Of a stretch of DNA of 64,000 nt, positions 9,717-52,971 are shown in pieces. Source of the stretch: Escherichia phage nieznany. The notes under the pieces are model-generated. The model was not told the origin of the DNA. It saw only the letters and a program-made list of their open reading frames with translations, and made no database searches. Within the stretch, counting starts at the first letter, position 1, and each line of letters opens with the position of its first letter. A program made the translations under genes and the position numbers. The DNA lies in the sequence record NC_052659.1. One strand, given 5' to 3'.

Positions 9717-10589
9717 ATGAAAGATTTGTACCAAGATGTTTTTTCTTTTTTAGATCGCACTTCAGAAACATACACTAGAGAGAATGCAAACAAACCTTCC
9801 CACCTCGTTAACACGCATAGGGATCTCTTGGCGGGGATTTTAAGCAAACATATGGCAATGACACAGATACTGCCAAAAAACTTGTCAGAATGGCATACAG
9901 AAGGTTTTGGACATATTCACGACTTGGATTATCTGCTCTCTCCTCTTACAAACTGTTGTCTTGTTAATTATCAAGATATGTTAGAGAATGGTTTTAAGAT
10001 CGGTGCTGCACAGATAGAAAAACCAAAATCTATTGGAGTAGCTACTACCGTGCTAACTCAAATCATCCAAGCTGTTGCCTCCAGTCAGTATGGAGGTCAG
10101 ACGTGTGCGCACATTGATAAAGGTCTTAGTCCTTATGTTGAAGCTAGTTTCCTTAAAAACATGGAGATAACCAAACGTCGCTACGGTTGTTATGCAAGGA
10201 AAGAAGCCCTAGAAATGACCGAACAAGATGTATATGACGCTATGCAAACTCTTTTGTATCAGGTTAACACTTTAATGAGTGTTAATGGACAATCTCCTTT
10301 TATTACAATCAGTATGGGTCTGGATACCTCTGTTTTTGGCAGAATGATCACAGCTAACTATCTTAAAGTGCATAGTAACGGTCTAGGTAAAGATCATGTA
10401 ACGCCTGTATTCCCTAAAGTTATTTTCTTTTTACAAGAAGGTGTTAACATGAAACCTAGTGATCCTAACTACGACCTTAAGCAACAAGCTTTGGCATGTT
10501 GTGCTGATCGTATTTATCCAGATTTTATTTCTGTTCCTTTGAACAAAGAAGTTACGGGGTCAGCAGATGGCACTGTTACGAGTATGGGT
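9717..10589 (+). CDS. nrdD: anaerobic ribonucleoside-triphosphate reductase NrdD, exon 1
   Basis: GFGHIHDLDY and downstream class III RNR-like sequence; reading frame runs into the intron and stops at 10598; exon ends on a U (..ATGGGT). Confidence 0.7.
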
Positions 10590-11360
10590 AAACTATAACT
10601 GCTCATGTAAAATCTGCCTAAACGGGGGAACTCTCAACAGAGACAATCCCGTGCTAAACGTAACAGAACTCCCAACACAGAAGAAGGGGGGTACTGATAT
10701 GAGAAAACAAATTCGTGATTTTGAAGGGTATGAAATTGACGAGCTTGGAAATGTTTATTGTACCAGGTATAAGGATGAAAGAATCCTTCGCTCGTGGGAA
10801 GAAATAAACACAGGATACCAACTTGTCAGAATACGTAAAAACAAGAAAACTGTTTGCTTTCGGGTGCACAGACTTGTAGCTGAAGCGTTTTTACCCAATC
10901 CAGACAATTTACCTTATGTGAAGCATAAAGGTGACAATAGGAAAGACAACAGTGTATACAATCTTGAGTGGGGATCTTGTCCAGACAACACGCAAGAGGG
11001 TTACGATAATAACTGTTATGCTTTCTACACAAGGTGTCACAGTGTAAAAGCTACTCATAAGGCTACTGGTGAAGTTTTTTACTTTAAAAGTCTGAGATGT
11101 TGTGCTGACGCTTTAGGGTTGGACAGAAAAAGAATATCTGCAATCTTAAAGCAAGGAGCACCAAATAATTATGATTATGAGTTCTGTTACGAAATGCCTA
11201 ACGACTAGCTGTGATGAATGTAGCAGCGTAGGGTGTAAGCCTATGACACCCCAAATGGTAGACATGCTTTAAGCATGAAGATATAGTCTGATCTGCATGG
11301 TGACATGCAGCAGCACGTAATGGTGCGGGAGTGGCCTTGCGAGCCACTTTGAACATAATG
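10590..11360 (+). mobile_element. group I self-splicing intron in nrdD with internal HNH endonuclease ORF
   Basis: Conserved core AAATCTGCCTAAACGGGGGAACTCTC...AGACAATCCCGTGCTAAA (10609-10657) closely resembles the T4 td/nrdD intron core; candidate IGS GCCTA pairs with exon end UGGGU; intron ends on G 11360; splicing restores ..TSMG|CRSFLSYY.. Confidence 0.7.
10699..11208 (+). CDS. HNH homing endonuclease (NUMOD4 plus HNH_3 type), intron-encoded
   Basis: FEGYEIDELGNVY (NUMOD4-like), VHRLVAEAFLPNP and KHKGDNRKDNSVYNLEWGS (HNH); ATG 10699 with AAGGGGG SD; lies wholly inside the intron. Confidence 0.8.
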   Translation: MRKQIRDFEGYEIDELGNVYCTRYKDERILRSWEEINTGYQLVRIRKNKKTVCFRVHRLVAEAFLPNPDNLPYVKHKGDNRKDNSVYNLEWGSCPDNTQEGYDNNCYAFYTRCHSVKATHKATGEVFYFKSLRCCADALGLDRKRISAILKQGAPNNYDYEFCYEMPND

Positions 11361-12302
11361 TGTAGAAGTTTCTTGTCATACTATGCAACAGAGCAAGGAG
11401 AAAAATATGATGGACGATTCAACCTTGGAGTAGTTTCTATCAACTTGCCTCTGATTGCTGCGGAAGCGAGAAGTAAAGGAGAATCTTTCACCGATCTTCT
11501 TAATAAACATATGGAGATAGCCTACGATGCTCACATGCTACGTGTAAACCGTATCAGACATACCAAAGCATCTGAAAACCCTATTCTTTTCATGGAAGGG
11601 GCTTTAGCGCGTTTAAATGCCAACGATGAAATTGGTGCTTTGTTTGAAGGTGGTTATGCTTCTATTAGTATTGGTTATGTAGGTCTTGCCGAAGCTTTGG
11701 AAATCCTTTATCCAGAGGAAAAAGATAAAAAGGAACTAGGTAAAAACATTCTGCAACATATGAAAGATGTGTGTGCTGTGTTTAAAGAACGATCTAAGTT
11801 GGCATTTAGTCTTTATGGAACTCCAGCAGAATCCTTGTGCTATAAATTTGCAACAGCTTTAAATGAAAAATATCCAGGTCTGGTAGAAAGAGACTATCTT
11901 ACTAATTCTTTTCATCAACCTGTATGGTTGGTAACAAATCCTTTTGAAAAATGGGATTATGAAGCAGGTTTTGCACAGATTAGCAATGGTGGTAACATAA
12001 GTTATGTCGAAACACCAAACTTAAAGAATAACTTAGAAGCTTTGGAGACTTTAGTAGACTACGCTTATGAACATATTCACTATTTTGGTATTAATCAGCC
12101 CGTGGATCAATGCTTTAAGTGTGGTTTTCATGGAGAATTTAAGGCAACGGCTAAAGGGTTTGAGTGTCCTAATTGTGGCAACCATGAAGAAGAAACTATT
12201 TCTGTAGTTAGACGTGTATCAGGGTATCTTTCTGCCCCTAATTCACGGCCTTATAACAAAGGTAAAATGCAGGAAGTTTTGCAAAGGGAGAAACATCTTT
12301 GA
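11361..12302 (+). CDS. nrdD: anaerobic ribonucleoside-triphosphate reductase NrdD, exon 2
   Basis: C-terminal zinc ribbon CFKCG..CPNCG and glycyl-radical motif RRVSGYL. Confidence 0.8.
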   Translation, partial: CRSFLSYYATEQGEKYDGRFNLGVVSINLPLIAAEARSKGESFTDLLNKHMEIAYDAHMLRVNRIRHTKASENPILFMEGALARLNANDEIGALFEGGYASISIGYVGLAEALEILYPEEKDKKELGKNILQHMKDVCAVFKERSKLAFSLYGTPAESLCYKFATALNEKYPGLVERDYLTNSFHQPVWLVTNPFEKWDYEAGFAQISNGGNISYVETPNLKNNLEALETLVDYAYEHIHYFGINQPVDQCFKCGFHGEFKATAKGFECPNCGNHEEETISVVRRVSGYLSAPNSRPYNKGKMQEVLQREKHL

Positions 12303-28240: not shown

Positions 28241-30019
28241 GTGTCGCACATTATAACTAAATATGGATTTGATGTTGATCTTAGCAAGGAAGGGCATACA
28301 GGTTGTCCGCGCTGCATGAAAAATGGCAAGGATCGCTCTCGTAATAACCTGATGGTTTATGGATTAGATTCTAATGGAGAGCATAAAGGTGCTAAGTGCT
28401 TTGCGTGTGAATACACTATTCCTAGCGTAGAATGGTTACGAGAAAATGGTGAAGTTTTAGAAGAAGAGGAGGAGATTGTGGGTTCGGAATTTAATAAACA
28501 GATTCATCGTAAAATTGTTCAAGAAACATCAACCAACCCACGTGGTTATCGAGGCATTAAAGAAAAAGTTTCATCTTTCTATGGTGTTCGTTATGAATAC
28601 CGTCAGGAAGGGGATCAGATGGTAGTAGAAAGTTGTTTATATCCAACTACTATCGGTAAAGAATTGGTTGGTTTTAAGCGTCGTATTCATCCTAAAGATT
28701 TCAGTAAACCTATTGGTCAAGTAGGTAAAGATGTAGATCTTTTTGGACAAATTCGTTTTGCAGACCGTTCTCATACTGTGGTAATTACAGGTGGTGAACA
28801 CGATGCTCTGGCAGCTTATCAAATGCTGTCTGAAAACTTGGACAACAAATATGAACTTCCAGCAGTAGTTAGTGGCACAACTGGTGAAACCAGTATGTAT
28901 AAACAAGTTCAGGCACAATACCCTTTCTTTGAAAAATTTAAGAAGATTATTGTTTGCATGGATAATGACAAAGCAGGTAATGAGGCATTTGAAAATATTG
29001 TTAAGGTGCTGCCTCGTAACAAAGTCTACCGTATGCAGATGGATCTTAAGGATGCCAATCAGTATCTGGAAGAAGGTCGTGCAAAAGATTTCGTAAAAGC
29101 TTTTTGGAGTGCTCGTCTATACACCCCAGCAGGTGTTTATGCTTCTAATGTCTTGTATGAAGCTGCATTAGAATGCTTGGAATCCAAGATGATTACCTTG
29201 CCTCCTTTTATGCGTGTTGCTGCAAATATGCTGGGTGGTGGTTTAGTAGAGGAAGAGATTACAGTCATCCTGGCAAAGACCAGTATCGGTAAAACTTTGA
29301 TGGTGAACGAGATCACCAAACATATTATTGTTGCGCACCCAGAACATACCCTAGGTATTCTGTCCTTGGAAGCAACTTATAAGAAATATTCTCGTAACCT
29401 GTTGTCCTCGTTCCTGCATATTCCTCTACACAGGAAAACACCGGAAGAGAAATTTCAAATCTTGGAAGAGAATAAAGAAAAAATCCTAGATTTTTACGAA
29501 AGAGAAGATGGATCACCACGTTTTTATGTGTGTGATGATCGTGGAGCAGATGTGGAGTCTATCAAAGAAAAAGTTTTGGAGATGATCATCTATTTTGGAG
29601 TAACAATTCTTGTTATCGACCCTTATTCTGATTTGCTTTCTGGTATGGATGTTCAAGCCCAGGAAGAGTTAGCAACATGGTTGAAGCGCATCATGAAAGA
29701 GTATGCTATAACTATTATCGTCATCTCACACGTTAAGAAATCGGCTAATGGTGGCAATGAACACTTAACAGAGGACGATGCAATGGGTAGTAGTTTCTTG
29801 GCTAAAGGTGCTGGTATTACCTTGGCTTTGGAACGAGATAAAGCCGCTGAAGACCCTGTAGAACGCAATACGACTCATTGCTTTATCCTAAAAAACCGTG
29901 AGTTCTCGGAAACTGGTCCGGCAGGGCAGTTTTACTATGACATTAGAACTGCAACTCTGCATGACAAAGAGCAGTATTTCAACAATCCTGCTAATTTGCC
30001 TACGGATAGCAACTACTAA
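28241..30019 (+). CDS. T7 gp4-like bifunctional DNA primase-helicase
   Basis: N-terminal Cys4 zinc ribbon (CPRC..CFAC), TOPRIM acidic motifs (VITGGEHD, CMDNDKAG), DnaB-like Walker A AKTSIGKT and Walker B LVIDPYSD; GTG start. Confidence 0.85.
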   Translation: MSHIITKYGFDVDLSKEGHTGCPRCMKNGKDRSRNNLMVYGLDSNGEHKGAKCFACEYTIPSVEWLRENGEVLEEEEEIVGSEFNKQIHRKIVQETSTNPRGYRGIKEKVSSFYGVRYEYRQEGDQMVVESCLYPTTIGKELVGFKRRIHPKDFSKPIGQVGKDVDLFGQIRFADRSHTVVITGGEHDALAAYQMLSENLDNKYELPAVVSGTTGETSMYKQVQAQYPFFEKFKKIIVCMDNDKAGNEAFENIVKVLPRNKVYRMQMDLKDANQYLEEGRAKDFVKAFWSARLYTPAGVYASNVLYEAALECLESKMITLPPFMRVAANMLGGGLVEEEITVILAKTSIGKTLMVNEITKHIIVAHPEHTLGILSLEATYKKYSRNLLSSFLHIPLHRKTPEEKFQILEENKEKILDFYEREDGSPRFYVCDDRGADVESIKEKVLEMIIYFGVTILVIDPYSDLLSGMDVQAQEELATWLKRIMKEYAITIIVISHVKKSANGGNEHLTEDDAMGSSFLAKGAGITLALERDKAAEDPVERNTTHCFILKNREFSETGPAGQFYYDIRTATLHDKEQYFNNPANLPTDSNY

Positions 30020-30038
30020 GGGCTTCGGCCCTTTTATT
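30018..30038 (+). terminator. rho-independent terminator
   Basis: AAGGGC-TTCG-GCCCTT stem-loop followed by TTTATT. Confidence 0.6.
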
Positions 30039-30049
30039 AAAAATACCTG

Positions 30050-30078
30050 TTGACAACTTTGCGGAAGGGACTTATACT
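30050..30078 (+). promoter_or_regulatory. sigma70-like promoter (TTGACA-17-TATACT)
   Basis: -35 30050-30055, -10 30073-30078; upstream of ATG 30112. Confidence 0.55.
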
Positions 30079-30111
30079 TGTCTCATCAACCAAACAAGAG
30101 GAGAAGTAAAA

Positions 30112-30543
30112 ATGCGTATGACAATCGATCTGAATGCAAAAGTTAAAGCTGCTGGTGCTCTGGGTGCTGGTGTTATTAAACACAAACAAGCGTTGGCATT
30201 TGCCATCCCACATATGATTGTTGAGGATCATCCTGAAGAGTTTGCTGTAAAAGTTGTTGAGAACAATGTCTCTGTTATTGAACATCTTCCAACTGGACGT
30301 TCTTACCGTGTTGTTTCTTCTAAAGGTTTCCGTTTCGATGTAAGCCCTTCTTTCACAAAAGGTGCTGGTCGTAGTAAAGTGGGTATTCTTTCTTACAAAT
30401 ATTATATCGATAAAGTTGCAGATGGTGTTGCATTCTGTCGTGTAAGTGAAGGTAAAGTAGATATCATCTTTAAAAATACCAAAAACATGGTTATTTCTGA
30501 CGATGGTAAAGTTGACCTCACTATTGAGTTCGCTAACAACTAA
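30112..30543 (+). CDS. hypothetical protein (143 aa), first gene of the polymerase operon
   Basis: Good SD; bracketed by terminator and strong promoter upstream. Confidence 0.5.
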   Translation: MRMTIDLNAKVKAAGALGAGVIKHKQALAFAIPHMIVEDHPEEFAVKVVENNVSVIEHLPTGRSYRVVSSKGFRFDVSPSFTKGAGRSKVGILSYKYYIDKVADGVAFCRVSEGKVDIIFKNTKNMVISDDGKVDLTIEFANN

Positions 30544-30552
30544 GGAGGACTA

Positions 30553-31347
30553 TTGAGCAAGTTGAACACACTTGATCAATATTACACTAACCCCGCTTAT
30601 GCGGGGTTCTTATGTGATAAGATCAAAGAAATTTTTGGAGAGGAAGCTAACTACGTAGAACCATCTGCGGGAGAAGGAGCTTTCTCTTCTTGTTTTAAAA
30701 ACATAACTTCTTTTGATATTGATCCTAAGTTTGAAGATTGTATTGAGGCAGATTTTTTAGCTCAATCTGTAGAGTCTGTTGGTAGTGTAACTGCTTTTGT
30801 CGGTAATCCTCCGTTTGGAAAAAATGCTAGTCTTGCCATTAAGTTCTTTAACCATTGTGCTGAAATGTTGGATAACGAAGGTGGTATTTGTTTTATCTTG
30901 CCTCGCACATTTCAAAAAATCTTTTTTGCACACAAACTAAATCCCCACATGCATCTTCTTTACGAAGAAGAATGTCCAAAAGGATCTTTTATTCTTCATG
31001 GAGAACCTTGGGATGTTCCTTGTGTATTCCAGATATGGACTAAACGCAACGAGAAGCGTTCTCCCGTTGTTTTAGGAGAAAATCGACTATTCGTATTAGG
31101 CAACAGTAAAGACTACGACATAGCCGTTAGGAGAGCGGGAGCAAGTGCAGGTAAAGTGTTATCAGAAGAAGATTCTTTATCTGAAGCATCTACCTATTTT
31201 TTAAAAGCCTTGACTTCTGATCTTAAAACGCGTATCATTGAGGCTTACCCGTTACTTAAAGCTGAAGCTAGTAAAACTGCGGGAGTAAGAAGTTTAAGTT
31301 TAAAAGAACTTCAGTGGGTTCTGGAGAACATTAGAAAGGAGGAATAG
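30553..31347 (+). CDS. DNA methyltransferase (amino-MTase, probably N6-adenine)
   Basis: DQYYTNPAYA (motif X-like), EPSAGEGAF (AdoMet motif I) and GNPPFG (catalytic motif IV); TTG start after AAGGAGGA. Confidence 0.65.
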   Translation: MSKLNTLDQYYTNPAYAGFLCDKIKEIFGEEANYVEPSAGEGAFSSCFKNITSFDIDPKFEDCIEADFLAQSVESVGSVTAFVGNPPFGKNASLAIKFFNHCAEMLDNEGGICFILPRTFQKIFFAHKLNPHMHLLYEEECPKGSFILHGEPWDVPCVFQIWTKRNEKRSPVVLGENRLFVLGNSKDYDIAVRRAGASAGKVLSEEDSLSEASTYFLKALTSDLKTRIIEAYPLLKAEASKTAGVRSLSLKELQWVLENIRKEE

Positions 31348-34300
31348 TGAGTAAGTTTACATGGGATATTGAAGCAAACGGATTGTTGAATAATGACACT
31401 ATTGATTATTTAGCTAGTCCTTATCGTCTCAAAGACACATTTCAAATGCACTGTATTGTCTTAGAGAACCATGAAACAGGAGAAATAGTAGCTTTCCACG
31501 ATGGCCCTAAATACATTTTTGATGGTCGTCCTTATGAAGAGTCAGATGATAAATATACATATGTTCTTAAAGAATATGTGGCGCAAGATTACACACATTT
31601 TCAACTAAAAGATTTCCCAGATTTTATTAATCATGAAGGTTATTTTAAAGACAAGCCTGAATATTTGGTTGAAATGGCTGTGGCACACAACGGTATCAAC
31701 TATGACTGGTTGGCTACAAAACTGTTTTATGGATTAGATTACAGTGTTAAATATAACACGTGGGGTAAAAGCAAGGTAAAACTTATTGACTCCTTAATTT
31801 TGAGTAAAGTGTTAAACCCAGATCGAAAGATTGAGGGCAAATCAGGACATAGTTTGGCAGCACTTTCTCGAAAGGCAGGTGGGGATGTAAAAATAGATTT
31901 CCGTAAAGAGATTCCAGAAGAAGATCGATTTAAGACTTTTGCTGCGGATATGCTTTATTACTGTATCTATGACAACAAAGCCAATACGAGCGTATATAAT
32001 TACCTTATGGAAGAGTGGGGTGATTATGATAAATGGGAAGGTCCATTTGAACTTGAACAACGTGTAGCAGACATTATTACACGCCAGGAACACCGTGGGT
32101 TTGCTTTTAACATGAAGCAAGCAGAAGAGAACCTTGCTTTTTTAGATGCAGAAATGGAGCGTCTTCGTTTACTCGTTGAGCCTATTTTGCCACCTAAACC
32201 AGCAACAAAAGGTTATCTTAAGGCTTTTATTCCACCTAAGTTGCAAATTAAAAAGAACTTAGAGCCAACTAACCATATGATCAATTTTGCTAAGAAACAT
32301 GATGGTCATTTGGAAGAGAGGGATGGAGATTGGTGGTTAGTGATGTTGGGGAAAGAGTGGAAACTGCCAGTTGCAGCAGATGAGCCTTTGTGTGATCCTA
32401 ATATCCCTGCAACATTGAACGATACAACCCATATTAAAAACTGGCTTGTAGGATTAGGTTGGGTACCATCGGAATATAAAGATAAAGATTTGACTCTTAA
32501 ATCTGGCACCAAGATTAAAAAGAGTGAGGAAGAACTTCAGAAAGGTATTCGAGCTTACGTTGAGCAAACTCTATCTTCTAATTTTTGTCAAGACCGTTGT
32601 GATCATCTGGAGTGCACACCGGAAACCTTGGAAAGGAAGATTCAAGAGCGTATAGCAAAAGGTAAAGGTCGAGGTCTTAAAGTATTGACTAACCCATGTT
32701 TTACCAAAGGTCAGGAAAAAGAAATCTGTCCTAACCTGCAAGCTTTGGGTGAGAAATTTCCTTATGCTACACAGATTGTAGAATACTTAACGTATAAACA
32801 CCGTAGGAACTCTATTTTAGGTGGTGGTGCCGATTGGGAAGAAGACGAAGAAGATCAAGAATACAACAAAGGTTTCTTGGCAGCAGTTCGTGCAGATGGA
32901 CGTATACCTACGCCAGCGGCTACATGCGATGCAGCAACCTCTCGTATGAAGCATAGGTCTGTAGCCAATATTCCTCGTGTTACCTCTTTGTTTGGATGGC
33001 AGATGCGTAACCTGTTTGGTGTAGAGGTTCCTAAATACTTCCAGATTGGTTATGACTTTGATTCATTAGAGGCGAAGATTGAGTCGCATTATACGTGGAG
33101 ATATGATAATCCTGATCATGCTTACTGTAATGCACTTCTGTTAGAAAAACCAAACGATGTGCATACTATGATGGCAAAACATATTACTGATATTATTGGA
33201 CGTAAGTTTGAACGTGGTCCTGCTAAGAGCGTTAAATACGGTTGTGTACCTGTAGATAATACGGAAGTGTTAACAAGAACGGGTTGGAAGAAACGTAAAG
33301 ATCTTTTTGTAGGGGATGAAGTTTTATCTTATAATACTCACACCGCTCTTTACGAATATACCCCTATTCTTAAGCTGTGGGACTATAACGATGCAGAAGT
33401 TGTCTCTCTCGGTAACAAGTGGTTCAAAGTAGAAGTTACTAACGATCATATGTGGATTAACGCACAGAGAAAAACTATGCGATCAGATGGTAACAATGTT
33501 AAGTATATGCAAGTGGAGCGTAGATCTACAGAGGATTTAAACTCGGAGTCAAACATAATTGCAGCAGGGCGATCTGGTGTGGTGTCTACTCTAACAGTGG
33601 AAGAAGGTCGTTTCTTAGGCTGGCTTCTTTCGGATGGCTACTATAAGTGGTCTGGCAAAGCCAGAAATAAAGTAATGGGTATTACAGTCACGGTAGATCA
33701 AGATGAGAAAAAATTCTTAGAAGAAGCACGTGAGGCTGTGGGAGATATCTTCACATTTGACGAGTATGTATCTGGAACGATGCATTCATTACGTCCTAAT
33801 AAGAGTCAGTTTAGGGAATTTTTGACTAAATGTGGCGTTGAAGTGGGTCAAAATAAGCACGAAGTGGACTGGTCTACATTAATTGCTAATCAAGGTCAAG
33901 CTGTGTTGGAAGCATTCTTAGAGGCATTCTGGATGGCAGATGGTCATAAGCGTCCAAACGGCAGTCTTGTTATCCGTCAAAAGAAAGGTAAGATTAGCGA
34001 CGCTGTTTCTTTGGCTATCAATATGACAGGTAATATTGCGTATGGTTCTGTTCAAAAAGATGGCATGTTAACGTTGGCAATCAATAACGGACAAACTATT
34101 TCAGGACAGAGGTTGACAAAAGCTTTTTCACGAGTAACAGATGTATTCTGTATCTCAACCAAGAATGAATCTTTTGTTATGCGTCAGAATGGTTTTATCA
34201 CGTTGACAGGTAACTGCACGTACGGCGCTCAAGCAGACAAGGTTGCTAAAACAATTGGTAGCGATAAATACACAGGGCAACTGGTGTTCGATGCTTTCTG

Positions 34301-34916
34301 GGAAGCTGCATTCCCACTGGCGCGTCTTAAAGAACGTTTAAACGATTTCTGGGTTAAGACTGGTAAACAGTATGTTTTGGGTATTGACGGTCGTAAGGTT
34401 CCTACTCGTTCTGCTCACGCGATTCTTAACTCTCTGTTCCAAAGTGGTGGGGTTATCTGTGCTAAACGTGCAATGGTTATTTATGACGACATGATCGAAG
34501 AAGAAGGGCTAAGTGTTGACTTCTTTAAAGATGACTGGAAGAATAAAGACTTCGTGCAACAAATGATTGCATATCACGATGAAGCCCAGCTTGAAGTTTC
34601 TCGTAACCTTGTAGAATTTAAATGGTTTTCACCTGAATCATTAGGTTGGAAGAAAGTAGACGATCCTGAAGAACAAAAGAAAATTGATAAAGAATGCCTT
34701 GCTAAAGTTGAAGAATGGAAGCATAATAAGGAAAAAGAGACAGGGCAAATTTGGGCTAACATTCATGAATCTCCCAAAGGTGGATGGTTTACAGCCTATA
34801 GTCGGGCAGGTGAACTTGCTGCTTTAGCTGTTACTAAGGCTGGAGAATTTTACAATCTTAATGTTCAGCTTACTGCCGGATATGATGTGGGTAACTCCTG
34901 GGCGAGCTGCCATTAG
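31347..34916 (+). CDS. family A DNA polymerase, T7 gp5-like, containing an intein
   Basis: N-terminal exo motif WDIEANGLL (T7 gp5: SDIEANALL), C-terminal ..GNSWASCH (T7: GPNWAICH), polymerase motifs throughout; 1189 aa because of a 324-aa insertion; GTG start. Confidence 0.9.
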   Translation: MSKFTWDIEANGLLNNDTIDYLASPYRLKDTFQMHCIVLENHETGEIVAFHDGPKYIFDGRPYEESDDKYTYVLKEYVAQDYTHFQLKDFPDFINHEGYFKDKPEYLVEMAVAHNGINYDWLATKLFYGLDYSVKYNTWGKSKVKLIDSLILSKVLNPDRKIEGKSGHSLAALSRKAGGDVKIDFRKEIPEEDRFKTFAADMLYYCIYDNKANTSVYNYLMEEWGDYDKWEGPFELEQRVADIITRQEHRGFAFNMKQAEENLAFLDAEMERLRLLVEPILPPKPATKGYLKAFIPPKLQIKKNLEPTNHMINFAKKHDGHLEERDGDWWLVMLGKEWKLPVAADEPLCDPNIPATLNDTTHIKNWLVGLGWVPSEYKDKDLTLKSGTKIKKSEEELQKGIRAYVEQTLSSNFCQDRCDHLECTPETLERKIQERIAKGKGRGLKVLTNPCFTKGQEKEICPNLQALGEKFPYATQIVEYLTYKHRRNSILGGGADWEEDEEDQEYNKGFLAAVRADGRIPTPAATCDAATSRMKHRSVANIPRVTSLFGWQMRNLFGVEVPKYFQIGYDFDSLEAKIESHYTWRYDNPDHAYCNALLLEKPNDVHTMMAKHITDIIGRKFERGPAKSVKYGCVPVDNTEVLTRTGWKKRKDLFVGDEVLSYNTHTALYEYTPILKLWDYNDAEVVSLGNKWFKVEVTNDHMWINAQRKTMRSDGNNVKYMQVERRSTEDLNSESNIIAAGRSGVVSTLTVEEGRFLGWLLSDGYYKWSGKARNKVMGITVTVDQDEKKFLEEAREAVGDIFTFDEYVSGTMHSLRPNKSQFREFLTKCGVEVGQNKHEVDWSTLIANQGQAVLEAFLEAFWMADGHKRPNGSLVIRQKKGKISDAVSLAINMTGNIAYGSVQKDGMLTLAINNGQTISGQRLTKAFSRVTDVFCISTKNESFVMRQNGFITLTGNCTYGAQADKVAKTIGSDKYTGQLVFDAFWEAAFPLARLKERLNDFWVKTGKQYVLGIDGRKVPTRSAHAILNSLFQSGGVICAKRAMVIYDDMIEEEGLSVDFFKDDWKNKDFVQQMIAYHDEAQLEVSRNLVEFKWFSPESLGWKKVDDPEEQKKIDKECLAKVEEWKHNKEKETGQIWANIHESPKGGWFTAYSRAGELAALAVTKAGEFYNLNVQLTAGYDVGNSWASCH
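33243..34214 (+). mobile_element. intein with LAGLIDADG homing endonuclease domain inside the DNA polymerase
   Basis: Insertion begins with Cys after ..KSVKYG, has block B TNDH, two LAGLIDADG-like motifs (FLGWLLSDGY, FLEAFWMADGHK), ends ..ITLTGN followed by Cys; removal restores a T7-like ..KYG|CTYGAQADK.. Confidence 0.75.
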
Positions 34917-34945
34917 TCTAACATGTTGTTTATTAAGGAGGTTTT

Positions 34946-35524
34946 ATGGTTTATGATCATGGTGTTTTTGATGGAGATATTACCGTAAGATCTCCTGAAG
35001 GAGTTATGCATCCTGCTTATATGAAATGGATGGCTATGTTGGGGAGGTGTTACTCCCCTTGCCAGCAGGTAAGAGATGTTGCCTACCACGGTGTTACGGT
35101 TTGTGATGATTGGAAGTTATTCTCTAACTTCTATTCTTGGTTACAAACTTGGGACAACTGGGAAAAATTAGAACTTGACAAGGATCTTATAGGAGGGGGC
35201 GTTTACTCCCCTGCTTCTTGCTTGATGATTTCTGGAAACCTTAATAAGTTCTTAGCTTATAGGAAGAAGACGGGGCAAATGGTAGGTTGTAATTACGAAA
35301 AGGATCGCAAGAAATATAAGGCCCATATAAAAGTAGACGGTCGTATTATAACACTCGGACGTTTTGATACTGAACTTGAGGCACATCTTTGTTGGTTGAA
35401 AGCTAAAGCAGAACAACTCACAAAGTTTTTTGAAATAGAAGACAAGAGAGTTGTTCCTTATCTTAAAGCATTGTATAATGAAATGCTTGAGCACGTAGAA
35501 CAACACAAAGAGTGGACACGATAG
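34946..35524 (+). CDS. free-standing homing endonuclease-like protein with AP2-type DNA-binding domain
   Basis: C-terminal YKAHIKVDGRIITLGRFDTELEAHLCW resembles AP2 domains; N-terminal W..M..RC..Y.GVTVC..W pattern recurs in phage homing endonuclease families. Confidence 0.4.
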   Translation: MVYDHGVFDGDITVRSPEGVMHPAYMKWMAMLGRCYSPCQQVRDVAYHGVTVCDDWKLFSNFYSWLQTWDNWEKLELDKDLIGGGVYSPASCLMISGNLNKFLAYRKKTGQMVGCNYEKDRKKYKAHIKVDGRIITLGRFDTELEAHLCWLKAKAEQLTKFFEIEDKRVVPYLKALYNEMLEHVEQHKEWTR

Positions 35525-35727
35525 GAGGAGATATGAGTTACGATTTAGATTACTTTGGACAGCCTTACCTGCCAGACGAATTCGCAGATGAGGCGGAGGG
35601 TCGTGAATGGGATGATGGGGATATCCGTTGTTGGTCTTGTGGTAAAGATATGTCCTATGAACAACATATGCACAATGATGGTTTCTGCATACATTGTTAT
35701 AATGAAATTGATCTGGAGGAAGATTAA
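35512..35727 (+). CDS. small zinc-ribbon protein (71 aa)
   Basis: CWSCG..CIHCY; AGGAGGAG SD. Confidence 0.4.
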   Translation: MDTIGGDMSYDLDYFGQPYLPDEFADEAEGREWDDGDIRCWSCGKDMSYEQHMHNDGFCIHCYNEIDLEED

Positions 35728-35894
35728 TGGGAAATGGTATCATGATTTGCTATAAAATTGTGCGTATTGTCGGAGACGAAGTTACCACTCGGTATTTTAT
35801 GATAGAGTCTCAAGCCGATGAGGTTTACAATGACTGGCTTGAAAAAGGTGGATACGATTTTGTATCTAAAGAAACTTTCCGTTTAGAAGTATAA
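35727..35894 (+). CDS. small hypothetical protein (55 aa)
   Basis: ATG overlaps upstream stop (TAATG); stop precedes the SD of the next gene; below ORF-track cut-off. Confidence 0.35.
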   Translation: MGNGIMICYKIVRIVGDEVTTRYFMIESQADEVYNDWLEKGGYDFVSKETFRLEV

Positions 35895-35904
35895 GGAGAA
35901 AACA

Positions 35905-36123
35905 ATGCGTAAATTAGTGAGCTTTAATGTTTCAATTCTTGTTGATGAACAAAATGAAGATGTTATTAAAGGTCTTGCAAATAAGATTGCAGGTGGAATG
36001 ACGGAAGCTGAAGTGTGGGAAGAATGTGCTCGACTTTATGAGGAAGGTGTTATTGAGGTCTTGGGGGATGAGATTAATATGGACGATGTTGTAAAAGTAA
36101 CTGTGGAGCGTATCAATGACTAA
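35905..36123 (+). CDS. hypothetical acidic protein (72 aa)
   Basis: TAAGGAG SD. Confidence 0.45.
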   Translation: MRKLVSFNVSILVDEQNEDVIKGLANKIAGGMTEAEVWEECARLYEEGVIEVLGDEINMDDVVKVTVERIND

Positions 36124-36709
36124 ATCAAAACAAATCAATATTGCCAAAGAAATTCTTACCGTATTAAAGATCGCTGATCCTAATTCTGTCTTGGCTGGCG
36201 GTGCTGTTCGTGATTGGCGTATTCTTGATATTGCTGGACGTGATCTGGATTTCTATACATCCCTTCCTGCACATCGGACTGAAGAACAAATACAAGGATT
36301 AATTGCATCTGCTTTAATGGGAACCAATATTCGTAAACTAGGAAACAAAGAGGCTTCTGACAATTATGAAGGTGTTACTGGTCTTAAACACGTTTTTGAG
36401 TTTGAACGTGATGGTCAGCTTTGCAACCTTATGATTATGGAACCAAGCGTAATGACAACCTTTCTAAATGAGTTCGATCTGTCCATCTGCCAGGCTGCAT
36501 TTGATGGGAAGGACTGTTATTATTCTAAAGATTTTGAAACAACCTTGGAAACAGGGATCTGCTTCTTGCACAAAGATGTTAGAGAAGATGCCAAACATGT
36601 TATTAAAATTGCTACACGTTTCCCATATCTTCGTTTTGTGAAAGAGGTTAAGGTTCCACGTCCACCTCAAGTAGATACCAGATTGGAAGAAGATGATATT
36701 CCTTGGTAA
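36116..36709 (+). CDS. minimal Pol-beta-superfamily nucleotidyltransferase (CCA-adding-enzyme-like head domain)
   Basis: LAGGAVRDWRILDIAGRDLDFY carries the GGxVRD...DxD signature of class II tRNA nucleotidyltransferase/poly(A) polymerase heads; C-terminus EEDDIPW. Confidence 0.55.
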   Translation: MTKSKQINIAKEILTVLKIADPNSVLAGGAVRDWRILDIAGRDLDFYTSLPAHRTEEQIQGLIASALMGTNIRKLGNKEASDNYEGVTGLKHVFEFERDGQLCNLMIMEPSVMTTFLNEFDLSICQAAFDGKDCYYSKDFETTLETGICFLHKDVREDAKHVIKIATRFPYLRFVKEVKVPRPPQVDTRLEEDDIPW

Positions 36710-36716
36710 TTAAAGC

Positions 36717-36746
36717 TTGACAATATTAAACATTTTATGATAGGAT
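36717..36746 (+). promoter_or_regulatory. possible sigma70-like promoter (TTGACA-18-TAGGAT)
   Basis: -35 36717-36722, -10 36741-36746; the -10 lies only 8 nt before ATG 36755, implying a leaderless transcript if correct. Confidence 0.3.
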
Positions 36747-36754
36747 AGCATTCA

Positions 36755-37147
36755 ATGACTGAACGTTCTAAGATAGCTGTTGAAACTGTTTATGGAAACT
36801 ATACCAGTTTGACACTAGTTGAGAAAAATGTTGTAGGTCTTGACAACTCTTTTTATTTTCAAATTTTGGTTATTCAAGGTGGAAACAAGAAGCTAACTGC
36901 TCGTGTCGAAACATCTGAAATAATTGAAACCACTGTTACAAACAAAGAATTCATTTCACTGCAAGATACAATCCGAAACGTTATAGACGAAGAAGGCAAA
37001 GCTGCCACAATTAAACTCGGAGGTTTCCCAGTGCAAATAGTTCATTTTCCTAATGGTGAAATTGGAGTTGGAATAGGTAAAGGTAAATACCTGTTAGAGC
37101 AAGATGATATGGAAAGACTCCGCTCTTTCTGTGCAAAATTAATGTAA
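36755..37147 (+). CDS. hypothetical protein (130 aa)
   Basis: ORF without an obvious SD, possibly leaderless. Confidence 0.4.
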   Translation: MTERSKIAVETVYGNYTSLTLVEKNVVGLDNSFYFQILVIQGGNKKLTARVETSEIIETTVTNKEFISLQDTIRNVIDEEGKAATIKLGGFPVQIVHFPNGEIGVGIGKGKYLLEQDDMERLRSFCAKLM

Positions 37148-37163
37148 TGTAGAGGAGATAATA

Positions 37164-38096
37164 ATGTCCGTAATTAATACTGAAACTGATCGTAAAGGCA
37201 AAACCGTAACTTATGCAACTGGTATCGTAGACTACGTCAAACTGGATAAATTCGCTGAACCTAAAACTTTTCATTGGGAAGGAAAAACGATTGTTTCAAC
37301 TCACCGAGCCTCTCTTGTTCTGAAAGAGAAAGGTGCTAAACCAGATGAGAAAGGTGTTTGGATTTCTCTTGGTGACATTGAACTGAAAGAAGGTTATGAA
37401 AACCTGCAAGTCAAAGAAGGTGATAATTGGATCACTATTGAAAAAGGTGTAGAAGTAAGTATTGATATTGATCGCGTTGATAATAAAGGCGGTAAAACTT
37501 ACTACAATACTAAAAAATCTCGTATTACAGTATTGTCTACCGATGGTGTTCAGAAGTCTAACAAATCTTCTGGCAATAAAGGTTCCAACGATGCTGCTCC
37601 TAAGCAGTCCTATAAAAAACGTGATACTGTAGGTCTGGAAACTGGTCACGCAGTAAATGGTGCACTGGAACTGATTCGTAATGGTGTTAAAGGCGATGCT
37701 TTCGATATCGCTGGGGTTGTTCAATCTGCAACTGTCACGCTGAAATCTGAAATTGCTGAATCTCGTGGCGTTGATATTAATGATTATGATCTTGGGGCAT
37801 CTGTTGGTCACGCTATTCTCAATGCTTGTAAAGACCATACCATTAAGACTGTCTCTGTAGAAGATCTGATTGATTCTGCTCGTAAAGTTCTGGCTCTGTC
37901 TGATAAAGTTGCTGCTGCCATTCGTGGTTCCGCAGAACAGCCTAAGAAAGAAGAGAAGAAAGAAGTTAAGAAACCTGAACCACAACCAGAACCAACTCCA
38001 AGTAATCAAGAAGAACCTCCAATGGACTTCGACGATGATATTCCATTTGCCCCTATTGGACTGCAATATGGTCGAAACTTCCTGCATTGCTTCTAA
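37164..38096 (+). CDS. single-stranded DNA-binding protein (T7 gp2.5-like) with SSB-type acidic tail
   Basis: gp2.5-like N-terminus, Gly/Lys-rich linker, acidic tail ..EEPPMDFDDDIPF identical in style to the bacterial SSB C-terminus, followed by a 15-aa extension; GAGGAG SD. Confidence 0.6.
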   Translation: MSVINTETDRKGKTVTYATGIVDYVKLDKFAEPKTFHWEGKTIVSTHRASLVLKEKGAKPDEKGVWISLGDIELKEGYENLQVKEGDNWITIEKGVEVSIDIDRVDNKGGKTYYNTKKSRITVLSTDGVQKSNKSSGNKGSNDAAPKQSYKKRDTVGLETGHAVNGALELIRNGVKGDAFDIAGVVQSATVTLKSEIAESRGVDINDYDLGASVGHAILNACKDHTIKTVSVEDLIDSARKVLALSDKVAAAIRGSAEQPKKEEKKEVKKPEPQPEPTPSNQEEPPMDFDDDIPFAPIGLQYGRNFLHCF

Positions 38097-38562
38097 GGTT
38101 TGTTTCAAGTGTGGGGTGTTAAAGCCCCTCACTGAATTTTACAAACATAAAGCTATGGCTGACGGTCACGTCAATAAATGCAAGGAATGTAATAAGAAAG
38201 ATGTTAAACAGAATCGTAAAGATAAATCTGAATATTACAAAGAGTATGATAAAAACAGAGATCAGACCCCAGAGCGCAAAGCTTTGAAAGAGGCTTACGC
38301 AAAAGGGAAAGGTAAAAATAAGGCCAATGAAGCTAAGAAACGTTACATCGAAAAGAATCCGAAAAAACGTTCTGCTCATATAGCTGTAGGTAACGCACTC
38401 CGAGATGGAAAGTTAGTAAAACAACCTTGCCAAGTGTGTGGGTCTGTTGATGTTCATGCTCATCATTGTGATTATGATAAACCGTTAGATGTTCTATGGC
38501 TGTGTCCTCTACACCATGAGGCTTGGCATCAAGAACATGGTGAAGGATTGAACGCTGAATAA
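38068..38562 (+). CDS. HNH endonuclease (free-standing homing-endonuclease type)
   Basis: CQVCGSVDVHAHHCDYDKPLDVLWLCPLHHEAWH is a canonical HNH/zinc-finger core; likely start ATG 38068 overlapping the 3' end of the SSB ORF. Confidence 0.7.
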   Translation: MVETSCIASKVCFKCGVLKPLTEFYKHKAMADGHVNKCKECNKKDVKQNRKDKSEYYKEYDKNRDQTPERKALKEAYAKGKGKNKANEAKKRYIEKNPKKRSAHIAVGNALRDGKLVKQPCQVCGSVDVHAHHCDYDKPLDVLWLCPLHHEAWHQEHGEGLNAE

Positions 38563-38569
38563 AAGAAAA

Positions 38570-38595
38570 GGGAACCTTTACGGGTTCCCTTTTTT
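38570..38595. terminator. bidirectional rho-independent terminator at the convergence point
   Basis: GGGAACC-TTTACG-GGTTCCC hairpin flanked by an A-tract upstream and TTTTTT downstream; sits between the last rightward gene and the last leftward gene. Confidence 0.65.
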
Positions 38596-50519: not shown

Positions 50520-50761
50520 TAGTCATCCTCTTTGGTAGATTGTGATCTGCCCCAACGTAAATCAATAAGATTTTTCATGAGGCGAGAAGGGGTTATCATG
50601 AAAACAAAAGCCCAACCCATCCATTCAGGAATTTCTTTTTCTATTCCTAAAAAGATAAACATGCCTGTCATAACCGACATGCCTACAGCGTTCCAGACTT
50701 TAGTAGAACTGACTTTATTATCAGGATATGTACAGAACATACCTATTAAAAATTTTCTCAT
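50519..50761 (-). CDS. small membrane protein (80 aa, two TM helices, charged C-terminus)
   Basis: Hydrophobicity pattern; coupled ORF. Confidence 0.4.
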   Translation of the reverse strand: MRKFLIGMFCTYPDNKVSSTKVWNAVGMSVMTGMFIFLGIEKEIPEWMGWAFVFMITPSRLMKNLIDLRWGRSQSTKEDD

Positions 50762-51066
50762 AGTGCGTTCTCATTACTTTTTAAATCACGAGATACAACT
50801 AATTCCCCAAGGTCTACAGAACCCGCTGAATGCACAAATACAGCAGCACTAAGACTAATGGCAGTAGTACCTGGGGCAATATCAGCAGGTAGGGAATACG
50901 CCCTTTGCGTCTCCTTATCATAGATAACCTTATACCCACCCAAATCCACACCAACTGAGAAGTAAACAACCTCAGATTGTTTAACTCCAAAGTGACGGGC
51001 TACTGCTTGTTTATTGGTTAAGATTCCGGTTGAACCTTTACCACCTTGTGAGAACATTTCGTTCAT
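50758..51066 (-). CDS. hypothetical protein (102 aa)
   Basis: Coupled ORF. Confidence 0.45.
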   Translation of the reverse strand: MNEMFSQGGKGSTGILTNKQAVARHFGVKQSEVVYFSVGVDLGGYKVIYDKETQRAYSLPADIAPGTTAISLSAAVFVHSAGSVDLGELVVSRDLKSNENAL

Positions 51067-51612: not shown

Positions 51613-52971
51613 TTAGAGCATCAGATAATTTTTTACATATCTGGCCAATTCTACCAGCGTCATTGTTTCGGTATTTTTGACCGTGCCATCCGCTGTTCCA
51701 CCTAGCTGGAAAATTCCAGTTTGTCTGACTGAAAGAACTTTAGTGCTGTTTATAGATATGTTCATATTTCTGAAGTTAAATGCACCTGTCGCATCTTCGT
51801 AACCAATCCACTTCGTTACTCCGGCGACCGGACCCCAGTAAATCCTATGGTCTATATCTAAGTTTATTGCATTACTTTCTTGAAATCTCGCACCAAGAGT
51901 GTTCAGACCATATGTGAAGTTGATTCCAGTTCCGTCAGCCCGTGGACCAAGTTTTATTCCTCCATAACGATGAAGGTTAGACACTGACCCTTCGATTTTC
52001 AGCTGTTGAGTATCTTCCAAATAAGCATTTTTCCAATCTCCGGAAGGGAGCACACCACCCCTTCTAAGCCTCATGCCTATCCACCAGCCAGACTCTCCTA
52101 CTGGACGGTTTGAGCCATCTCCAACGTCAATTCCAATACCACAAGCTGAACCACCGTCCGCAGTAGTAACGATAAGACCTCGATAAGGCCCCTCCCCTGT
52201 GGGAAGGTTTTCCGGATGAGGCTGAGATGAGAATGAATTCACCAGATTTAATTCACATCCGACTAACTGAGAAGAGCGCACTCCAGAGCCATCATTACCA
52301 TTCCCTGCCTGACCCCAAAGACCCCAAACCCTCCCGTTTCGTCCTATAGCTTTACCAGAACCATGTACGCCTATAGCGTCAACTGATTTTCCAGAGGTTA
52401 ATACATCACCAGCCGAAGATCTTACATAGCCCGAGACACCAATCCCAAAGGCTGACGCCTCCGGTTCAAGGGTTATCGTTCCCTGCATAGCAACATCAAA
52501 CCATTTTGTGCCCCCCTCTTCCCTTTTCATCTTGGAGGTTTTTTCTGCCCAGATTAATGGGTAAGGGTTTTCGGCTCCGGCTCCGGGTAAACCGCGCTTT
52601 AATTTGAACCCACCAGAATAGTTCCTAAACGAAGGATATATATTAAACGTTGCATCAACAGTATTGGGCCAATACCCTTCTGGGACAAGGTAGGTAAGGC
52701 CCGTGTTGTTCGCGGCAGTAATAGCTACCGTATTGGATTCGGAATCCCCTTTGGCTCCGCCAGCGAACCCACCCCACGTAATTGGTTTTGGAATATCACC
52801 AATAAGACCAGCCCCACCTGAATCTTTCAACTGGGTGGCTAAAACCACCCCAGTGTCAGTAAGAAAGTTGGAAACTGTGCTTTTAACAGTCTTATCAGGT
52901 TGATCTAAAACCAGGTAATCTGAACCATTAACTTTTGATGTTTCGGGTAAATTAGTAATTGTAGTTGACAT
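51613..52971 (-). CDS. tail/baseplate structural protein (452 aa)
   Basis: G/S/T-rich beta composition; within structural operon. Confidence 0.4.
   Translation of the reverse strand: MSTTITNLPETSKVNGSDYLVLDQPDKTVKSTVSNFLTDTGVVLATQLKDSGGAGLIGDIPKPITWGGFAGGAKGDSESNTVAITAANNTGLTYLVPEGYWPNTVDATFNIYPSFRNYSGGFKLKRGLPGAGAENPYPLIWAEKTSKMKREEGGTKWFDVAMQGTITLEPEASAFGIGVSGYVRSSAGDVLTSGKSVDAIGVHGSGKAIGRNGRVWGLWGQAGNGNDGSGVRSSQLVGCELNLVNSFSSQPHPENLPTGEGPYRGLIVTTADGGSACGIGIDVGDGSNRPVGESGWWIGMRLRRGGVLPSGDWKNAYLEDTQQLKIEGSVSNLHRYGGIKLGPRADGTGINFTYGLNTLGARFQESNAINLDIDHRIYWGPVAGVTKWIGYEDATGAFNFRNMNISINSTKVLSVRQTGIFQLGGTADGTVKNTETMTLVELARYVKNYLML

Follow-up and report, generated by a model that had tools for sequence, protein, structure and literature searches.

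The window analysed here is a 64,000-nt stretch of the genome of Escherichia phage nieznany (NC_052659.1), and the block under study, positions 28241-38096, carries + strand genes for a primase-helicase, a DNA polymerase and a protein resembling single-stranded DNA-binding proteins (SSBs). An earlier note, made from the sequence alone, had built its reading on these three open reading frames (ORFs), all of which we located exactly where it had placed them, and had taken them for a complete T7-like replisome within a mosaic that fits no phage family. We conclude instead, with high confidence, that the block belongs to a Phapecoctavirus, a ~150-kb E. coli myovirus (Stephanstirmvirinae, phAPEC8/phi92 group, rV5-related), whose replication module it forms, and that the polymerase gene bears an intein.

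Three stretches of the window, together ~60 of its 64 kb, were compared with sequenced phages. By megablast the block is 96-98% identical to >60 GenBank genomes of Phapecoctavirus (Stephanstirmvirinae), with nepoznato as the top match (98.1% identity, 94% covered). Positions 1-25000 match ESCO13 at 98.9% identity (97% covered), and positions 39522-64000 match tuntematon at 99.7% (98% of 39001-64000). Set against thresholds of ~70% genome nucleotide identity for a genus and ~95% for a species, the searched stretches, at 97-99.7% identity measured on the window rather than on whole genomes, fall within Phapecoctavirus. This is the tight clustering with a characterised genus that the earlier note had itself named as decisive against its view, and the claim of a mosaic outside every phage family fails. 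Because the window clusters with Phapecoctavirus and its features have been published for relatives, the mosaic is not novel; the replication block is an already-known module, which carries annotation in >100 GenBank genomes and has been treated in work on rV5, phi92 and ICP1. A PolA polymerase, a GP4d-type helicase akin to podovirus primase-helicases, and both NrdAB and NrdDG have been described for rV5 (PMC3606486); the BASEL paper reports that relatives of rV5, phAPEC8 and phi92 share a three-fibre "Swiss army knife" baseplate (PMC8594841); and a review of ICP1 presents a myovirus "like T7 and T5" with DNA polymerase I and a GP4-type helicase primase, calling the complete ICP1 replisome uncharacterised (PMC9040626).

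The primase-helicase contains the Pfam domains Toprim_2 (aa 182-276) and DnaB_C (aa 333-554), and it matches the PHROG family phrog_239, "DNA primase/helicase", at E 2e-164. All six of its solved relatives at E<0.01 are constructs of T7 gp4 (best E 7e-25, over aa 146-574), to which it is 26.6% identical over 447 aa by BLASTP. A Cys4 zinc ribbon (CPRC, aa 22-25, and CFAC, aa 53-56), the TOPRIM motifs GGEHDAL (184-190) and DNDKAG (241-246), a Walker A motif (SIGKT, 348-352) and a Walker B motif (VIDPYS) are all present, and the combination that characterises the T7 replisome, zinc ribbon, TOPRIM and DnaB-like ATPase on one polypeptide, is thus found here. The earlier description of the protein as gp4-like stands, given that T7 gp4 is the sole solved family matched and that Pfam and PHROG agree.

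When the polymerase was searched with phmmer against all PDB sequences, the only solved relatives at E<0.01 were chains of T7 gp5 (E 4e-17), next to one weak match to an intein endonuclease, and none of the Pol I, Taq or Bst chains reached E 0.01. Over 291 aa the spliced polymerase shares 30% identity with gp5 (E 4e-27); its end, GNSWASCH, corresponds to GPNWAICH in T7, with the C-terminal His conserved. The 3'-5' exonuclease motifs DIEAN (7-11), HNGINYD (114-120) and YYCIYD (204-209) lie in the N-extein, which also has the thumb, motif A at 569-575 (YDFDSLE) and, at 623-632, the opening half of motif B (RGPAKSVKYG), and the C-extein holds the remainder of motif B (CTYGAQ) and motif C (YHDE, precursor aa 1076-1079). 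Exo I-III align with gp5, as do motifs A, B and C, and a Tyr occupies the position of T7 Y526. A family-A polymerase with a 3'-5' exonuclease and a C-terminal His, the hallmark of the gp5 lineage, is what we find; a gp4-type primase-helicase and a T7-gp5-type family-A polymerase are encoded by a large myovirus.

Relatives of the polymerase were detected by tblastn in 2181 phage records. Those of Pakpunavirus-type myoviruses of Pseudomonas are 51% identical, those of ICP1 and rV5 27-30%, and those of T7-like podoviruses likewise 27-30%; one rV5 record bears the label "DNA polymerase, T7 like". A separate observation concerns a Cys-rich insert that is not found in gp5 (~32490-32860, aa 383-503), which runs CQDRCDHLEC ... 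NPCFTKGQEKEIC and then acidic EEDEEDQE, and which may be a metal-binding module.

The alignment with gp5 is broken in the middle: polymerase residues up to 634 and from ~950 match, and the ~320 residues between them do not. With a slash marking the junctions, the break reads RGPAKSVKYG/CVPVDNTEVLTRTGW ... FITLTGN/CTYGAQ, the T7 equivalent being RDNAKTFIYGFLYGAG. The insert, precursor aa 633-956, splits the motif B helix; it begins with C633 as Cys1 (CVPVDNTE), ends with N956 (..FITLTGN) and is followed by C957 at +1, and within it lie a block B TxxH motif (VTNDH, 697-701) and two LAGLIDADG motifs (FLGWLLSDGYY and FLEAFWMADGH). The polymerase gene of phAPEC8, at 2598 nt and 865 aa, equals the precursor minus 324 codons, with 849 of the 865 residues identical, and it reads KYG/ITYGAQ where the window reads KYG/C...N/CTYGAQ. 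In BLASTN the phAPEC8 gap falls at window positions 33243-34217, and the 972-nt insert is present in the window and in nepoznato and absent from phAPEC8. Among the 120 closest polymerase clusters, 112 are intein-free, three have this same intein after aa 632, and five have another one, of 245 aa, after aa 582.

The 324-aa insert thus keeps the reading frame, interrupts a conserved motif, is precisely missing from a near-identical allele and has the junction residues and motifs of a class 1 intein; as judged from these features it is a LAGLIDADG intein, for which splicing is predicted and homing would be expected. Its endonuclease core matches PI-PkoII (phmmer against PDB, E 0.0012), and tblastn returned similar inserts, 22-32% identical, in Pseudomonas KIL polymerases, in mycobacteriophage genes annotated as nucleotidyltransferases and in Gordonia TerL. 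Phages with this intein allele (nepoznato, ukendt) are viable. The earlier note was right about the relation to gp5 and about the ending (..SWASCH as T7 ..NWAICH), but it overlooked the intein behind the 1189 codons, as it also passed over both free-standing HNH genes of the block. Most database records label the precursor "DNA polymerase I", probably because the Pfam and NCBIfam intein models miss the insert, and a literature search returned no paper joining phi92, intein and DNA polymerase. The matter is of practical weight, as a hidden intein distorts the annotated protein length and any phylogeny based on the 1189-aa precursor.

An annotated polymerase intein of the phi92-like phage PaulScherrer (MZ501100) occupies the same host protein, has the same Cys1 ... 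TGN/Cys+1 ends and is 32% identical. It differs in length (245 aa against 324 aa) and in its site, ESHY/C...N/CWRY in motif A rather than KYG/C...N/CTYG in motif B. At the motif A site (window 33090-33095, aa 582-583) the phage studied here reads ESHY/T, and intein-free relatives have Cys at +1 (ESHYCWRY); with Thr at +1, the window's motif A site therefore differs from the allele that hosts the 245-aa intein.

For the 310-aa SSB-like protein, which had been called a gp2.5-like SSB, homology to gp2.5 is undetectable: BLASTP against gp2.5 gave nothing at E<=10, hhalign of a 62-sequence profile of the SSB-like family against gp2.5 gave a probability of 0.3%, and Pfam has no family for the protein, the PF00436 OB core going undetected. 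An AlphaFold2 model (mean pLDDT, the per-residue confidence, 80) has a beta-rich region at aa 1-130, a four-helix region at aa 156-253 and a disordered tail. Within that tail, aa 285-295 (nt 38016-38048) read PPMDFDDDIPF, identical to the C-terminal tip of E. coli SSB (SSB-Ct). The family comprises 237 homologues; 92 of its 120 clusters end at ..PF, and in the window 15 further residues follow the tip. Going by the model and the tail, the protein is best described as a putative OB-fold SSB of an uncharacterised phage family with a host-type docking tip; it would be a functional analogue of gp2.5, to which it is not detectably related. The SSB of a widespread phage group would thus fall in an uncharacterised family.

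The gene directly 5' of the SSB-like gene encodes a 130-aa protein (36755-37147) with 24 homologues, none annotated. Homologues also lie 5' of the SSB-like gene in distant relatives (33% identity, E 6e-15, at L007; 28%, E 1.5e-10, at L012), and given this conserved placement the 130-aa protein may be an SSB partner.

The residues that follow the tip form a cap, APIGLQYGRNFLHCF (15 aa, aa 296-310, nt 38049-38093), which directly succeeds PPMDFDDDIPF. Capped proteins make up 28 of the 120 family clusters, the window included; they extend 14-17 residues past ..IPF, start (A/S)(P/S)(I/V/L)GL(Q/P)Y, and give the consensus AP[IV][GT]L[QPM][YFH]xx[HN]x[ILM][HY]x[IFL]-COOH. The cap also occurs at L005, L007, L012-L015 and L017-L019, the peptide is kept between lineages despite synonymous codon differences, and capped and uncapped SSB-like proteins can be up to 98% identical. 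It is not confined to this family, as it ends canonical PF00436 SSBs of phage mEp235 (..DFDDDIPFAPVTLPFPRHAIHAI) and Proteus phage vB_BPM-V3 and, in a Vibrio phage, an OB protein that has no Pfam family, and it is accordingly found on at least three unrelated OB scaffolds: the SSB-like family, the PF00436 SSBs of lambdoid and Proteus phages, and the Vibrio-phage OB protein. The composite tail was matched by 229 phage records at E<=1, and among 5426 complete E. coli genomes, 408 (~7.5%) contain the 3' end of the mEp235-type ssb gene in its capped form. A literature search found no paper with the string DDDIPFA.

We considered whether the cap might be a read-through or overlap product of the HNH gene at 38068-38562, whose first 29 nt lie within the end of the SSB-like gene, and rejected this. 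What comes directly after the cap at L014 and L015 is a hairpin of terminator type or a convergent tail gene, the mEp235, Vibrio and Proteus phages are capped with no downstream HNH gene, and the codon changes are synonymous, the peptide being kept. Tentatively, the cap may represent a functional module of phage SSBs that has so far gone undescribed, a possibility that we hold to be somewhat less likely than not. Host SSB-binding proteins need a free Phe carboxylate, which the cap could mask; alternatively, it could provide a second docking site. Its h-x-L-x-aromatic pattern presumably bears a loose likeness to beta-clamp-binding hexapeptides. The capped SSB tail is the sole item in this block that might open new biology.

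The remaining features of the block are collected in Table 1. The proteins of 143 aa and 264 aa between the primase-helicase and the polymerase (30112-31347) are both conserved, with no Pfam or NCBIfam match and no assigned role. Both HNH genes vary between close relatives: in BLASTN comparisons, window positions 34939-35520, which cover most of the first, are missing from nepoznato and phAPEC8, and positions 38048-38558, at the second, are missing from phAPEC8 and differ in their 5' half in nepoznato. The second HNH protein has a Cys4 finger and the HNH motif HAHHCDYDK...LCPLHHEAWH. None of these insertions is unusual: intein and HNH genes alike are mobile elements whose presence differs among nearly identical genomes. 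The hairpin at 38566-38593 separates the + strand replication block from the convergent - strand tail genes, and phAPEC8 has an annotated terminator at the equivalent place. At gathering thresholds Rfam had zero matches in the window, and the window holds no tRNAs.

Table 1. Coordinates of the genes and other features in and next to the replication block (window positions).
Feature	Position	Strand	Basis
Primase-helicase, 592 aa	28241-30019	+	Pfam Toprim_2, DnaB_C; phrog_239
Candidate near-consensus sigma-70-type promoter, TTGACA-17-TATACT	30050-30078	+	Sequence scan
Conserved gene, 143 aa, role unassigned, phrog_9938	30112-30543	+	PHROG match
264-aa protein, phrog_5172; relatives' label "putative DNA N6-adenine methyltransferase"	30553-31347	+	PHROG, annotation
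Polymerase ORF, 1189-aa precursor	31347-34916	+	T7 gp5 alignments
Polymerase N-extein, aa 1-632	31347-33242	+	gp5 alignments, phAPEC8 intein-free allele
Predicted LAGLIDADG intein, 324 aa	33243-34214	+	phAPEC8 comparison, motifs
Polymerase C-extein	34215-34916	+	gp5 alignments
Free-standing HNH homing-endonuclease gene, 192 aa	34946-35524	+	phrog_953, E 8e-67
Nucleotidyltransferase-like, 197 aa; relatives' label "tRNA nucleotidyltransferase / poly(A) polymerase"	36116-36709	+	phrog_10174
Conserved 130-aa protein	36755-37147	+	phrog_16560
SSB-like protein, 310 aa	37164-38096	+	OB fold, SSB-Ct tip
Second HNH endonuclease gene, 164 aa	38068-38562	+	phrog_2340, homologue alignment
G+C-rich hairpin, T runs on both sides, terminator-like	38566-38593	.	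Scored on - strand

Elsewhere in the window the gene content had been read correctly. The nrdDG genes, the Ter-like genes and the J-like baseplate are borne out by Pfam matches to nrdD, nrdG, TerC, TelA and Baseplate_J, and the baseplate with a spike and multiple fibre genes by hub, wedge, fibre, fibre-assembly and spike PHROGs. The nrdD gene consists of two exons (9717-10589 and 11370-12302) around an insert of ~780 nt (~10590-11369), which holds an HNH/I-HmuI-like ORF (10567-11208) and, at 11071-11310, a full-length match to Rfam Intron_gpI (39.7 bits, E 1e-7) that is under the gathering score; in ESCO13 nrdD is uninterrupted and encodes 604 aa. By these signs nrdD is interrupted by a putative group I intron carrying the HNH ORF.

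Two further observations concern the tail genes and the database records. In the - strand tailspike region the window has a 452-aa tailspike gene, two small ORFs and a 102-aa ORF (50758-51066, 51613-52971), as does tuntematon; the nepoznato equivalent is a single 921-aa tailspike gene, and the window's 102-aa ORF matches tailspikes in their N-terminal anchor only, an arrangement that looks like the remnant of a spike-gene swap. Five records labelled "Campylobacter phage" with C. jejuni as host (MG065639, MG065645, MG065647, MG065650 and MG065656) are nonetheless close to this group of E. coli phages; one such record has 96.7% nucleotide identity over the tail region, and two others carry a 99.7% identical intein. 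The C. jejuni host labels of this MG0656xx series look doubtful.

The complete genome of nepoznato, 98% identical, indicates what the rest of such a phage contains. A split large terminase, portal, major head protein, sheath, tRNAs, NrdAB, ligase and exonucleases are annotated in it, and according to the annotation every coding sequence of >700 aa other than the polymerase is a tail protein. Its annotation lists neither an RNA polymerase nor a sliding clamp or clamp loader, a statement made from the annotation, with no dedicated search; it agrees with the earlier remark that a T7-type RNA polymerase is lacking. The single-subunit phage RNA polymerase that belongs to a T7 replisome is thus missing from the annotated gene set.

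From these components a replication scheme can be proposed. A hexameric gp4-type primase-helicase would unwind the fork and, through its zinc-ribbon and TOPRIM half, lay down RNA primers, and a T7-gp5-type family-A polymerase, its proofreading motifs intact, would copy both strands. The polymerase would be made as the 1189-aa precursor, from which the 324-aa motif B intein must be spliced out to leave the 865-aa enzyme. The phage-family OB-fold SSB would coat single strands, and its acidic tail would couple partners; the E. coli-like tip could serve as a docking site for proteins of the phage replisome, for host SSB-binding proteins, or for the two together. Host RNA polymerase would transcribe all genes. 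Overall, a clamp-less, T7-style minimal replisome is most likely, and a T7-type polymerase that copies 150 kb with neither clamp nor clamp loader annotated poses a biochemical question.

Several points weigh against this reading. We infer the helicase, primase and polymerase activities, the splicing of the intein, the role and tail partners of the SSB, and the source of processivity from sequence features. What supports the SSB assignment is an OB fold of a generic kind together with the motif in the tail, with no homology to a characterised SSB core. As to processivity, the thumb segment at the place of the T7 thioredoxin-binding domain is ~102 aa long between conserved flanking helices, close to the ~97 aa of T7, but shows no conservation of sequence; modelling of the intein-free polymerase with AlphaFold2 and 19 close homologues reached a mean pLDDT of 35.7, too low for use. 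The claim of a complete T7-like replisome accordingly goes too far: the SSB is no gp2.5 homologue, and the thioredoxin-binding domain is at most a candidate. On the side of the intein, the Pfam and NCBIfam intein and Hint models did not match the insert, LAGLIDADG_3 alone appearing at E 0.0023, under the cut-off, and the penultimate residue is Gly, where inteins usually have His. Finally, the picture of host sigma70-like promoters throughout finds no statistical backing: sigma-70-like sites in the window number 47, against 49.7 +/- 7.2 expected from shuffled sequence, so there is no enrichment. What survives of it is a few near-consensus intergenic sites, such as 30050-30078; in phAPEC8 the gap at the same offset 3' of the primase/helicase gene is labelled "putative host dependent promoter". 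For rV5, 33 E. coli-consensus promoters have been described genome-wide, and T4-late-like motifs 5' of late genes (PMC3606486).

Other explanations were weighed against this scheme. The most durable of them, though in our estimate unlikely, is that the 310-aa protein is a decoy or adaptor whose copied SSB tip captures host partners (chi, PriA, RecQ and ExoI, among others) or serves recombination. Such a role would be compatible with that of a replisome SSB, and it has to contend with the persistence of the SSB-like gene beside the polymerase and helicase genes in distant relatives, with an OB fold and long disordered acidic tail that are the standard layout of an SSB, and with the nepoznato genome, in which no second SSB is annotated.

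It seems a good deal less probable still that the family-A polymerase serves repair or gap-filling and that bulk replication falls to host Pol III, recruited via the SSB-Ct-like tail. The E. coli SSB tip motif binds the chi subunit of the clamp loader, and the phage tail matches that motif; moreover, no processivity factor was identified, and an annotation note in phAPEC8 terms the enzyme a gap-filling polymerase. On the other hand, the polymerase comes together with a gp4-type helicase-primase, an arrangement shared by T7 and ICP1, its nearest solved relative is the T7 replicase and not Pol I, the nepoznato annotation lists no further polymerase, and a passage in PMC4760082 holds that inteins favour essential replication proteins.

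As for a complete T7 replisome (gp4, gp5, gp2.5) moved into an unclassifiable large phage to found a new mosaic lineage, the gp4-like and gp5-like genes are real and the 98%-identical relative's complete genome has no annotated RNA polymerase, but we regard the idea as scarcely credible, since the searched stretches belong to named Phapecoctavirus genomes, an equivalent gene set has already been reported in rV5, phi92 and ICP1, the SSB is no gp2.5 homologue, and an identity to T7 proteins of 27-30% speaks for ancient shared ancestry and not for a recent transplant.

The replication module of a Phapecoctavirus is thus the reading that we prefer, and the nearest known systems are the members of that genus themselves. 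The genomes of phAPEC8, ESCO13, nepoznato and tuntematon share gene set and gene order with the window at 97-99.7% nucleotide identity, including the replication block, nrdDG, TerC/TelA and the multi-fibre baseplate, and they differ from it only in their load of selfish elements: intein, SSB cap and the two HNH genes are all missing from phAPEC8, nepoznato carries the intein but neither the first HNH gene nor the cap, and ESCO13 is without the nrdD intron. Justusliebigvirus (phi92) is the sister genus, and the rV5-like Vequintavirinae also belong among the nearest known systems. The SSB of E. coli and the PF00436 SSBs of phages and prophages resemble the 310-aa protein in their OB fold, long disordered linker and tip PPMDFDDDIPF, whereas the core of the latter is missed by PF00436, it has an extra helical domain, and its tip is not C-terminal.

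The likeness to the T7 replisome lies in a proofreading family-A polymerase that has the Tyr equivalent to Y526 and ends in His, in a primase-helicase that joins zinc ribbon, TOPRIM and DnaB-like domains in one chain, and in an SSB with an acidic tail. The differences are the 27-30% identity, an SSB that is unrelated to gp2.5 and has a host-type tip, the want of an annotated phage RNA polymerase, and the size of the polymerase, which at 865 aa spliced against 704 aa for gp5 carries extra inserts of ~80 aa (Cys-rich) and ~60 aa (near the C-terminus). ICP1, although its polymerase is ~27% identical and its host and genome are others, is, like the phage studied here, a large myovirus that combines a family-A polymerase with a GP4-type helicase-primase.

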